A stretch of 64,000 nt of DNA, taken from Ascidiella aspersa (Eukaryota). This document shows positions 58,601 through 62,585 of the stretch, piece by piece. Position 1 is the first letter of the stretch, and each line of letters opens with the position of its first letter. Position numbers and translations under genes: made by a program. Where the stretch lies: NCBI GenBank assembly GCA_963924565.1, contig OZ004609.1, positions 32,550,001-32,614,000 of the forward strand, read 5' to 3'. The notes under the pieces were generated by a model, which was given only the letters and a program-made list of their open reading frames with translations, had not been told where the DNA came from and searched no databases.

Positions 58601-61600
58601 GTAGGCATGAGTGCCACTGATCTGTAATAATTTATGTTCTTTATAGGTATATTGTCGAATTGTGTTTGTGTGCTTGTTGTGGGCAAAGATTTTTGAAAGG
58701 TGGATGAAAGACTGAAAGATTTAAATTAATTTTGGATGTTTTTAAATTTAGGAGCCAAGTTAACGTTTTTTTGTTAAGTTTACATTTATAAACAAAGCCC
58801 TCTAAAAATACTATGTGTTGATTGCAAAGCAATATGTGACTTTTACTTTAAAATAAATGTAAATTTTTTGGGTCATTTTGGTACCAGTTAAATACAAAGT
58901 AAATATGATAAAAAGTTTCAATGTCACACTGACATTTTACCTTGCAGAGCCCCCTATTATTACGAACGGAGAAGGCATCAACATTATATGTGAAGATGCT
59001 TCTCTTGAAAATGGGGATTCACCTGTAGAGTCAAGTAACCTTGTTGAAGACTCGAGGGAAAACCAAAGGCAAGTGAATTTTGGGTTCCCATTCAAATGAG
59101 ATGATCTAGAAGTCAACAAGTGTAATAAAATGATGTATAGTATATGTATATGCTTTTTAATTGCAGGGAATTTGGCTATGAATATATGGAACATATGTAT
59201 TGATCCTTTTTATAAATTATTTCCTAATTGTAATAAGCAGTGAAGTAGTTACTGCTTTACAACAAAATTATTTTTTGCATATTGCTATACTGTATCACTT
59301 GATATATATGGTTGCAGATATTAGCACTGCTTCTTTATTGATAAAAAAACTTTCATTGATTGGAGTAAACTCTTAACGGGTTTAGTCAGAGTTTCAGCTA
59401 AAACTCTGCTAATAGTAAATCGGGTGTTTTTATGTGTGCTATTACATTGTTCAGTACAGTTTTCAAATAAGCTAGATTACTGCTGTAACACACATGTGTA
59501 TGAATGCTTCATTTTGGCGCAGTATTTTTTTCAACCTTAATTAAGGTTATTAATTTGAATTTGCGCAGTGCCTCATTACCCATTGACGACGTCAATTCCG
59601 CTGTCACCGAAAGTGCCTTGTTGCCACCGGATTGTAACGAACACGGCAGCGGATTAAACCTGGAGCCAAACGGTGGTGTTTCCACCGTCGATTGCAATCC
59701 TGAACCGTCAACGACTTCCCTGTCGAGTGGGGATGGCACGGCTTTGCCTTTTTTAGGCTCAGATATCGAGAGTATTGCCCCAAAGCAGGACTTTAAACCT
59801 TTGACGCTGAACGAAGCGCAGGTGGCCCTAGGAAGCAATGACTTGTCAACAAGTGGCAACACAGGTGGCGAACCTGCAGTGGCTGCTGATCAGGAGCCAA
59901 CTGTTGTGTTGGAAAGTTTACGGCAAGATTTTGTACCTGACCAGACTTTGCCAAATGAGGAAGCCTTAACCACAGACCAACCGTTACCTTGTACACAGCA
60001 TACTTTTCAGACTTGCCCTCAGAACGTTATCATTACAAGAGACGATGCCAAGTCTACAGGGAGCAGCCTTGGCGATGGCGCCGAAACCACTGGCTCCGGC
60101 GGGTCGCCCAGCCAGCACCCGGTGCCCAAACTGCGCCACGATAAGGACACGCTTTTGAACCTGTTGAAGTTTATCGCGCTCTCGGATTCTACCGGCGAAA
60201 ATGAGCCAGAACCTGAACGGGAAATGGTAGGGTTAAGTTACTAACAAAAAATGCCTCAATTTTTTTTAATTACCCTACTTATTAAACAGTTTTGCATTAC
60301 CAGTTCAACAAAACAAACAATCTCTCCTGATGCCAAAAGCACAGCTATCCTATTTTATTTCCCATAAAGAATAACTAATTATACAGTCAACAGAAATCTT
60401 ATAGACACTTTTGCATTGCCAATTTATTAAAGTAAACAATCTCTTCAGATGCCAAAGCACAGCAATTTTATTATAATTACCACAAGGAATAACTAATTAT
60501 GGGCAAGAAATGTCCTAAAACTAATATAAAATATTTTTGCCTTCTAGCTTGATATTCTGATAAAGCGACCAAGTGCATCAAGCCATGTGGGTTGCAATAT
60601 CATCGGAGGGTCCGAGTCTAAACATCCCATTCTTCGCTCTATGGTGAGTAAATTTGTGTAAAAATAGCCCTGAAGTTGTTGCAAAACACTATCATATTTG
60701 AGCTATGTGGCACGTCGGTTTTTTGTTGTTGTTTTTTGTATGAAATTTTAAACTTTTTAGTTATGAAAATGTGTTAAAGATTACTCTTGTTTTTGTTGCA
60801 TAGTTTGTGTATTATTTTCTTTCTAAAAAACAAGTAAATTATTAAAGTGCAACATAAAATATTACATTTGGCAGTGGTCGTTACTCGTTAGTCTTTACTG
60901 CTATCCGGCCCTTTATGAAAAAAATTAGTTAAAAATTATTATTTTTTTTAATTAAAATGTTTTTAGGAGCAGACATAGTTAAGCGTTGTTATGTTGTTAA
61001 TTTCACACATACTTAGCAACATTATTTCAATTTACTTGTGTTTATTATGTCCAAAATATTTTTATTTTTTAGTTTGTTGTGGTGCATGTTCTTACATGTT
61101 TAAAGTAGCTAACGGCTAATATTATAATACCATTAAAGTCTTACCAGCTCATAAATGCCTTCTGTTTGGACAACACAACCACAATTTCATTACCCAGGCA
61201 AATATCAATAATTTGCTGTAGTTTGTTTGTTAAAATATTTGCTGTTGTGTTTATTTTTCTATTTCTGAGGGTCATTTTATGAGACAAAATATTTCTTGAC
61301 AATGCACAGTTAACAGCAGCTGTTTAGAAAGCTGAATGGTTGTCCAAGATATTTGTTTAATGACTCCGTTTGTCAACGCTGGGCTGTAAATCAAACATAC
61401 CAAGTTATTATCAGATAATACTAAAGTGCATTTTCTTTTCCTATGTAACTTTAAATTTCAGATTTATATAAATCTATTAATCCATATTCATGTTTATTGA
61501 TATATAATGTTTTCTTATTTTAAATATGTTTTTCCTCTATTGCAATTTTTTGTTACCAGGGCATTTATGTGACCAAAATCGAAGCTGGTAGTCCGGCCGC

Positions 61601-62585
61601 GTTGGCGGGGGTTAAAGTTCACGACCGCTTGGTGTTGGTCGACGGCGAGCCAGTGATCGACTCTCACAGCGCTGTAGTAAATGCACTTAACGCTGCAGCA
61701 GCCGATGTTTCGATCAAAGTAGAACGAAGAAGCATACCACCAGAGTTGCAGGTAATTTGTATGGTTTGAACTTGGGGGGGGGGGGTATTCCTTCAAAACA
61801 AAATCTGTCTTTTAAATTTTTTAAAGATTTTTTTATGTATAATTTTTATATATCAATAAACATGAATATGTTTTTTTATTTTTGAAACTGCTTTAAAAAC
61901 TTTTTCCAATATTTTGTTACAAGCTTTAATAATTGGGTACACTATGCACGGATCTGTAAATAGCATGATAATTTGATACGAGCTTGTATATTTTTAAATA
62001 GGTTAAATCCTTAAGTGAAGATGATACAAGTTTGTATCAAAATGTCTTAATCAAAATGATGTTGATTTACTTTTCGGCTTGACAATTCATTATCAAGCTT
62101 TAATAATAATAATTCAGGATAAGGTTGTGTAATGATTGTCAAATGTCCTTTAAAATTTGCCAACTATTAAAATGCAAAAAAGTTTCCACTATTTTTTCGT
62201 ATACTCCTGTTGTCATCTGTATAAAGTATTTTTTATTTTGATAGTTTTTGTCTTATTCGTTAATTTGGTATTATCTTGTTTTATGTTATATTAGCTATTG
62301 TTATTTTTTTTAGGAATTGCAATTTATTTGATTTTGTGATATTCTCAGTTAGTTATATTTAACATCTTCATTACTGTTTTATTTTCTCGTTATTACTTTT
62401 GTTTGTTTTTTGTGTTTTTTCAAAATTGTTATTTTATTTTTTTTTAAAACACCACTGTGACGTCATTTAGGAGCCTCCACCCTCCAGTGGTCGAGCGACG
62501 AGGAGACGACCTTCTTTGCCGATATCCCTTGTGAGCAAAAAGCGAAGCATGAACGTTCTTTCTACTTCTTCAAGTTACGCCTCCG
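52629..62585 (+). CDS. hecw: HECW/NEDL-like C2-domain protein with a PDZ domain (putative NEDD4-family E3 ligase), 3'-partial
   Basis: Exons 52629-52683, 54105-54268, 54793-54932, 55185-55267, 57267-57443, 58948-59068, 59569-60226, 60548-60643, 61560-61751, 62471-62585, all phase-compatible. C2 motifs LKRGVFFNPDPYVKL, PHHKQ, DIIELEVRDRF, RRFLGKL match the HECW1/2-type C2; WW and HECT domains not within the window. Confidence 0.78.
54105..54268 (+). CDS. hecw: HECW-like C2 exon
   Basis: ISGFSLKRGVFFNPDPYVKLRILPGNNCKKCPHHKQLHHTKQVEGTTNPTWKEQ. Confidence 0.9.
54363..54435 (+). pseudogene. tRNA-like SINE head or tRNA pseudogene
   Basis: GCCTGTGTAGCTCAGTTGGTAGAGC A-box and degenerate B-box GAGTTTGAAACCTC; no valid anticodon arm. 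Confidence 0.55.
54793..54932 (+). CDS. hecw: HECW-like C2 exon
   Basis: FYIQVLRSDIIELEVRDRFDRGHPTFRRFLGKLDVPVTEILERLNC. Confidence 0.9.
55185..55267 (+). CDS. hecw: HECW-like C2 exon (end)
   Basis: EQRYTGPLVKRGPLDQTSGSLSFLVSD. Confidence 0.85.
55414..55747. mobile_element. hAT MITE
   Basis: CTGTGGTTTTCAACC/GGTTGAGAACCGCTG ends; TSD TTCTAAAC/TACTAAAC; GTGGCCCA subterminal motifs. Confidence 0.85.
57267..57443 (+). CDS. hecw: HECW-like linker exon
   Basis: attag|..|gtaagt; Ser-rich, phase 1-1. Confidence 0.8.
57490..57739. mobile_element. Truncated hAT MITE with a nested fragment of the 43145-family element
   Basis: ATGTACAT on both sides; right end GTTTGCCTACCACTG; 57592-57688 resembles 43560-43657. 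Confidence 0.75.
58948..59068 (+). CDS. hecw: HECW-like linker exon with GC donor
   Basis: tgcag|..AAG|gcaagt; phase 2 end is required by the next exon. Confidence 0.72.
59569..60226 (+). CDS. hecw: HECW-like large acidic linker exon
   Basis: Within ORF 59504-60244; cgcag|..ATG|gtaggg. Confidence 0.85.
60289..60500. repeat. Imperfect tandem duplication, about 120-bp unit
   Basis: TTTTGCATT..AAACAATCTCT..GATGCCAAA.GCACAGC..GAATAACTAATTAT occurs twice. Confidence 0.75.
60548..60643 (+). CDS. hecw: PDZ domain exon 1
   Basis: LDILIKRPSASSHVGCNIIGGSESKHPILRSM; tctag|..|gtgagt. Confidence 0.85.
61483..61870. repeat. Perfect 25-bp inverted repeat flanking the PDZ exon
   Basis: CATATTCATGTTTATTGATATATAA (61483-61507) / TTATATATCAATAAACATGAATATG (61846-61870). 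Confidence 0.9.
61560..61751 (+). CDS. hecw: PDZ domain exon 2
   Basis: GIYVTKIEAGSPAALAGVKVHDRLVLVDGEPVIDSHSAVVNALNAAAADVSIKVERRSIPPELQ; 192 nt, phase 0-0. Confidence 0.92.
62471..62585 (+). CDS. hecw: HECW-like exon after the PDZ
   Basis: tttag|EPPPSSGRATRRRPSLPISLVSKKRSMNVLSTSSSYAS G|gtaggt. Confidence 0.75.

Follow-up and report, generated by a model that had tools for sequence, protein, structure and literature searches.

A PDZ domain in the linker of a HECW-type HECT ubiquitin ligase of ascidians

Introduction

Ubiquitin ligases of the NEDD4 family share a division of labour in which the C2 domain targets membranes, the WW domains bind partner proteins and the HECT domain transfers ubiquitin, and NEDL1 (HECW1) degrades Dishevelled-1 (PMC8999422). 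Scribble has also been named as a target of NEDL1 (PMC9867363, excerpt, citing PMID 31616916). PDZ-guided ubiquitination is known from the RING ligases of the LNX and PDZRN types. The PDZ domains of LNX derive from MUPP1, with ligands common to both (PMC3162930, excerpt), and the human PDZ protein table of PMC7138185 contains no HECT protein. Here we describe a gene of the ascidian Ascidiella aspersa that encodes a HECW-type ligase with a PDZ domain between C2 and the first WW domain. Its 5' half lies in a stretch of 64,000 nucleotides (contig OZ004609.1, positions 32,550,001 to 32,614,000, forward strand), hereafter called the window.

Results and Discussion

Gene Structure and Protein Architecture

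Thirty exons could be spliced into a single frame of 1555 amino acids with no internal stops, which runs from window position 52629 to a stop codon at G000:C3:32637771. Splice signals, together with colinearity to orthologous proteins, were used to infer the exon junctions. The encoded protein has the domain order C2, acidic linker, PDZ (aa 467-556), WW1, HECW1 helix, WW2 and HECT, of which the four last domains are located 5-24 kb past the window end, within the 80 kb of downstream sequence that was examined. The sequence-only reading, made from the window without database searches, had placed a PDZ domain in one frame on two phase-0 exons inside a HECW-type ligase, and the gene model, Pfam and the orthologues agree on this. 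The two exons (96 and 192 nt) have AG/GT ends, the three introns that flank and separate them are all in phase 0, and skipping one or both preserves the reading frame. The HECW-type C2 domain and the acidic linker were also recovered as described; a C2 exon scored above the Pfam C2 cut-off and the linker contains 18% D+E and 4% K+R. The exons within the window are, in window coordinates:

52629..52683, + strand, first coding exon with ATG and start of C2; aligns with the N-termini of the Phallusia, Ciona and Clavelina proteins
54105..54268, + strand, second C2 exon with the HECW-type FFNPDPY motif; Pfam C2 E 5.8e-5, 75% identical to Phallusia
54793..54932, + strand, third C2 exon; 94% identical to Phallusia, splice sites present
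55185..55267, + strand, fourth C2 exon; 70% identical to Phallusia
57267..57443, + strand, Ser-rich linker exon; 67% identical to Phallusia
58948..59068, + strand, acidic linker exon preceding a GC-AG intron; placed by frame and splice signals only, with no tblastn match to Phallusia
59569..60226, + strand, large acidic linker exon with phase-0 donor, whose 3' end holds a conserved helix-like motif (aa 438-447); linker 13-22% identical to orthologues
60548..60643, + strand, first PDZ exon, with βA, the carboxylate loop HVGC (aa 479-482), βB and the βB-βC loop; phase 0-0, 75% identical to Phallusia
61560..61751, + strand, second PDZ exon, βC to βF with the helix αB His (aa 534); phase 0-0, Pfam PDZ above cut-off, 71% identical to Phallusia
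62471..62585, + strand, post-PDZ exon with the RRxSxP motif (aa 574-579), which all five ascidians retain; the gene runs on past the window

The HECT domain matched at G000:C3:32631419-32637765, with 80-92% identity to orthologues in this region and a catalytic-site motif that includes Cys 1523. Because this motif is intact, ubiquitin ligase activity is predicted. The HECW1_helix family had its sole match in the whole genome in the present gene, where two WW domains flank the helical box, and each orthologue likewise has two WW stretches. A HECW_N domain upstream of C2 (window 42500-52629) was not found in searches near the gene that included remnants; many accepted HECW records also lack it, so this was not used against membership. 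Judged by its sequence, the gene is an ascidian HECW/NEDL HECT ubiquitin ligase.

Twenty-eight of the 29 introns are GT-AG. The single GC-AG intron lies in the linker (window 59069-59568) and is needed to hold the frame. Exon GC content is 0.38-0.53 in the C2-PDZ half and rises up to 0.72 around WW2 (0.55-0.72 in parts of the WW region).

Distribution among Ascidians and Other Animals

A search with the second PDZ exon found, among 469 candidates, one protein that is a full-length HECW with a PDZ domain, from Phallusia mammillata (71% identical over this exon); it is colinear with the A. aspersa gene and 60% identical overall. Orthologues that share the domain order and the position of the PDZ are present in P. 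mammillata (CAB3252474.1), Ciona intestinalis (XP_009857929.2), Clavelina lepadiformis (CAK8696244.1/XP_076807995.1) and Styela clava (XP_077975841.1), although the names of these records omit the PDZ. Three of the 25 proteins listed by a C2-region search carried a PDZ (Phallusia, Ciona intestinalis and Clavelina lepadiformis), and the 22 without one came from Saccoglossus, cyclostomes and jawed vertebrates. Among the best 120 of 2093 proteins in a pre-HECT search, four had the domain (the same three genera and Styela clava) and 116 did not; the latter include spiders, insects, a mollusc, echinoderms and vertebrates.

With a general PDZ profile, eight of ten ascidian records reached 74-91 bits, and the other two are fragments that lack this region. 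By the same profile no PDZ was present in any of 138 non-ascidian HECW proteins (maximum 3.6 bits), and 101 of them extend from C2 to WW1 and so include the PDZ site. The stated absence of a PDZ from vertebrate HECW1/2 was borne out among the proteins fetched, as it was for the non-tunicate invertebrates fetched. The architecture had been called unusual. It is not unique to A. aspersa, since RefSeq and UniProt records of four other ascidians have it.

In a WW-HECT tree built from 30 selected rows the five PDZ carriers form one clade (Shimodaira-Hasegawa-like approximate likelihood ratio test 100) with A. aspersa beside Phallusia, and their five PDZ domains form one clade (96/97) in a 98-row PDZ tree. 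Phallusia, Ciona, Clavelina and Styela together cover Phlebobranchia, Aplousobranchia and Stolidobranchia. Because the carriers span three ascidian groups and the 138 non-ascidian proteins have no PDZ, the simplest reading is that the domain was gained once in the ascidian ancestor. HECW_N is kept in Styela and absent from the A. aspersa, Phallusia, Ciona and Clavelina records, so that its loss would be a second architecture change, later than the PDZ gain.

Conservation of the PDZ Domain and Binding Prospects

The frame of the second PDZ exon by itself exceeds the Pfam cut-offs (PDZ_6, E 3.1e-9, 36.9 bits; PDZ, E 5e-8), while that of the first exon has no Pfam family match. The domain appears complete because profile matches to solved PDZ sequences cover positions 4-98 of 100. 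A structure model of the Phallusia PDZ from a three-sequence input was weak (predicted local distance difference test 59.6), with βB and βC not formed. All fold matches listed for it were PDZ domains, none of which reached E 0.001.

Identity of the PDZ to Phallusia, Ciona, Clavelina and Styela is 74, 50, 56 and 34%, whereas that of the linker is 22, 17, 17 and 13%. The carboxylate-binding loop reads HVGC in A. aspersa and Phallusia, HLGF in Ciona and Clavelina and NLGL in Styela, and the loop Gly, His at αB1, Val at αB5 and Leu or Ile at αB8 are kept in all five species. Carboxylate-binding loops follow the motif X-Φ1-G-Φ2, in which Φ1 and Φ2 determine the preferred last residue of the ligand, and class I PDZ domains are marked by His at αB1 (PMC7138185, excerpt). 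The same source lists the human loops HVGF (syntenin PDZ2), GLGC (USH1C PDZ2) and SLGC (GORASP PDZ2). The sequence-only reading noted HVGC as divergent and gave a degenerate PDZ as one of two alternatives; the loop as a sign of degeneration is not supported, as HVGC fits the motif and such human loops are known. With the fitting loop and the αB1 His, the domain has class I features and is predicted to bind S/T-x-Φ C-termini. That the HVGC form binds at all seems quite likely. Because HVGC fits the loop rule and the class I His is kept in five species, the domain is likely a working peptide binder, putatively of class I with a lineage-specific pocket.

The C-terminus of Vangl in the A. aspersa genome is ETSV, which makes it a candidate ligand for testing only. 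A predicted complex of the Phallusia PDZ with this tail scored 0.02, in a run whose controls did not fold.

Two short motifs flank the domain and contrast with the otherwise unconserved linker. A helix-like motif with LxxLL precedes it in four species (window 60130-60170, aa 438-447); this region is 50-85% identical in three orthologues and 25% in Styela. A kinase/14-3-3-like RRxSxP motif follows it in five species (window 62500-62520).

Origin of the PDZ Domain

For the search for a donor, A. aspersa PDZ domains were identified in the present analysis and public domains were labelled by similarity. A profile of the five HECW PDZ domains, run against A. aspersa spliced domains (20 scored), gave 61.8 bits for Scribble PDZ1, 47.9 for Scribble PDZ3, 45.9 for an MPDZ domain, 45.3 for SYNJ2BP and 41.8 for TAX1BP3. 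Median scores of public domains were 60.7 for Scribble PDZ1 (n=44) versus 43.1 for PDZ3 (n=54). When the A. aspersa HECW PDZ alone was used in BLAST, PDZ3 came marginally above PDZ1 (46.2 versus 44.3 bits). Among solved single domains, a PDZRN3 PDZ and domains of Scribble and Dlg rank highest, separated by a few bits only. The best 150 matches in a representative library, used here for reference and not to survey HECW, were multi-PDZ scaffolds only. The domain had been likened to Scribble PDZ3: the likeness to Scribble stands at sequence level, but with the profile scores PDZ1 and not PDZ3 is closest. Both stretches that had been likened to PDZ3, GGSESKHP and RRSIPPELQE, are present in A. aspersa. 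They are not conserved across ascidians (KHP reads KYD, KHL and NNT in the others), and homology of PDZ3 motifs was rejected. Dlg, SYNJ2BP, Erbin-like and NHERF domains were discarded as best donors for their lower scores and other introns.

The PDZ phylogeny that had been proposed as a check recovers the HECW PDZ domains as one clade. They nest inside Scribble PDZ1 (98/93), beside three rows that include A. aspersa PDZ1 (97/86), in a reduced tree only. Approximately unbiased (AU) tests on the 98-row set reject none of PDZ1, PDZ3 and TAX1BP3.

Scribble PDZ1 of A. aspersa has a phase-0 intron before βA, as has the HECW PDZ. TAX1BP3 (TIP-1) of A. aspersa has phase-0 introns before βA, in the same register, and exactly before βC, with no third, which is the two-exon layout of the HECW PDZ. 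A phase-0 exon start at the βB-βC junction was found in four of 82 PDZ pieces (most but not all of 97 Pfam hits), namely HECW, TAX1BP3, syntenin PDZ1 and one MPDZ domain. Sequence thus favours Scribble PDZ1 while the intron pattern matches TAX1BP3, and the two conflict. A copy of TAX1BP3 would concern the origin of the domain only. It would account for the identical layout, with a βC intron that just three of 81 other pieces have, and AU tests do not reject it. Yet its profile score is 20 bits lower, it does not appear among the 60 top PDB hits of the profile, its βB-βC loop is longer, A. aspersa TAX1BP3 has Gln instead of His at αB1, and the trees hold a single TAX1BP3 sequence, on a long branch. 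We consider the chances that Scribble PDZ1 was the donor to be about even, TAX1BP3 to be a possible but rather unlikely source, and a donor other than these two to be about as probable as TAX1BP3.

Proposed Function and Alternative Explanations

Taken together, the most probable reading is of an ascidian HECW ligase whose conserved PDZ domain, likely acquired a single time in the ascidian ancestor, is predicted to recognise C-terminal tails of the S/T-x-hydrophobic type. A PDZ, most likely copied from Scribble PDZ1, would have entered the fast-evolving HECW linker as a phase 0-0 module, where it would provide a second recruitment route besides the PY-binding WW domains. Through it the ligase may dock on membrane or polarity proteins by their tails, after which PDZ-bound proteins or WW-bound neighbours would be ubiquitinated. 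A comparable docking role has been proposed for the PDZ domains of LNX ligases. The HVGC loop would likely shift the preferred last residue of the ligand and not abolish binding. A more far-reaching version, which we regard as doubtful, is that the copy of Scribble PDZ1 wired the ligase to Scribble-type ligands such as Vangl and so controls planar or apico-basal polarity. Equally doubtful is the corollary that the fusion of genes does what mammalian HECW1, which is reported to target Scribble and Dishevelled-1, does in trans. Were this true, the protein would be the first PDZ-HECT ligase to be described.

Several observations weigh against the proposed binder and its origin. Val at Φ1 and Cys at Φ2 are rare (4 and 3 of 540 public PDZ domains, respectively), and His replaces the usual Gly of the GD motif in four of the five species. 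The likely peptide binding is read from sequence features, and the exon linkage from splice signals and colinearity. Regarding the donor, the 98-row tree does not single one out for the HECW PDZ clade, the reduced tree was made post hoc by dropping 29 rows (long branches and the Lin7, NHERF and MPDZ groups), and both PDZ3 and TAX1BP3 survive the AU tests (p 0.65 and 0.51 in the full, 0.19 and 0.47 in the reduced set). Scribble PDZ1 of A. aspersa also lacks an intron before βC and has one after βD that is absent from the HECW PDZ. Lastly, the single gain is drawn from compared proteins that do not include amphioxus, Oikopleura and salps, and from the best 120 of 2093 in the pre-HECT search.

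NEDD4-family ligases are autoinhibited via linker contacts. The PDZ could be functional in localisation or regulation, through PDZ-PDZ contact, lipid binding or packing on the preceding helix or on WW/HECT, and not bind substrate tails. The helix-like motif before it in four species and RRxSxP after it in five suggest such a regulatory block, but it is the residues of the peptide groove that are conserved, and the C-terminus of the A. aspersa ligase itself is Glu, unlike a class I tail; we consider this role unlikely. Still less probable is that a binder of the ascidian ancestor decayed in the Phallusia-like lineage and is now a folded spacer. The F-to-C and L-to-V changes that would mark this decay are common to A. 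aspersa and Phallusia only, and both residues are rare at these positions. Against this, the domain is 74% identical to Phallusia beside a linker at 22%, with the loop and the βB-βC segment near-invariant between the two species, and the human loops cited above show the same residues in PDZ domains. That the C2, PDZ and WW-HECT exons come from separate transcripts, their fusion being an artefact of gene prediction, is very improbable. This would be compatible with junctions inferred from splice signals, with the rise of exon GC along the gene and with frame-preserving skipping of the PDZ exons, but independent full-length records of four other species show the same order, and the C2 part and the WW-HECT part on either side of the PDZ together make up an ordinary HECW gene. 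The reading as a probable tail-binding ligase is preferred.

A description of the ascidian PDZ-HECW was not found in the literature searched, which excluded subscription journals and InterPro. The main text of two HECT surveys, PMC2837046 (Ciona included) and PMC3673628, makes no mention of a PDZ in the excerpts, and figures or supplements could show it. The sequences and automatic domain calls are already public, while the architecture is apparently undescribed so far. As an accessory domain of one lineage the PDZ implies no new mechanism. Even so, an ascidian-wide PDZ-HECT ligase would show domain shuffling cleanly, and in a form that can be dated, within the sister group of vertebrates. It may also hint that HECW enzymes have acted on polarity proteins since ancient times, a point of relevance to the human disease genes HECW1 and HECW2, which are poorly understood.

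Genomic Surroundings

A Cdx-like ParaHox gene lies about 11.6 kb upstream of the HECW start codon on the same strand (window 35519-36300 and 40408-41049, +), with a homeodomain (E 7e-20) and an upstream exon with a YEW motif. Three tRNA genes also lie in the window (19171-19245, 19897-19971 and 44287-44357, +), two of them tRNA-Arg(CCT) and the third tRNA-Gly(GCC). Very high-copy short repeats occur in HECW introns (window 57570-57740 and 61930-62070; summed contig depth >14,000). Downstream of HECW (G000:C3 ~32660700-32677800) there is a tandem gene pair, each with a protein-kinase exon and then a TPR-like exon. Elsewhere in the genome, two copies of syntenin-like PDZ exons lie 9 kb from each other (G000:C8:15176724 and 15185879) with identical translation, which could be either a recent tandem duplication or a duplication in the assembly.

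Comparison with Known Systems

HECW1/HECW2 (NEDL1/2) and invertebrate Hecw are the best BLAST and tree neighbours of the ascidian gene and have the same order of C2, long linker, WW, HECW1 helix, WW and HECT. The ascidian gene differs from them by the PDZ before WW1, and that of A. aspersa also by lacking the HECW_N that most non-tunicate records keep. Scribble PDZ1, of the LAP family, has the top score with the HECW PDZ profile and shares with this domain the phase-0 intron before βA and the class I His, but the two are only 32-38% identical, their internal introns differ, and HECW has no leucine-rich repeats or tandem PDZ domains. TAX1BP3 has the identical two-exon layout in A. aspersa, but lower similarity and a longer βB-βC loop, and it is a stand-alone protein. 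LNX1/2 and PDZRN3/4 are analogous to the ascidian HECW in that they join a ligase to a PDZ from a scaffold. They differ in having RING and not HECT, two to four PDZ domains and an unrelated origin, and Pfam scans of the ascidian orthologues found no RING domain and a single PDZ only; the ascidian HECW is thus no member of this group.

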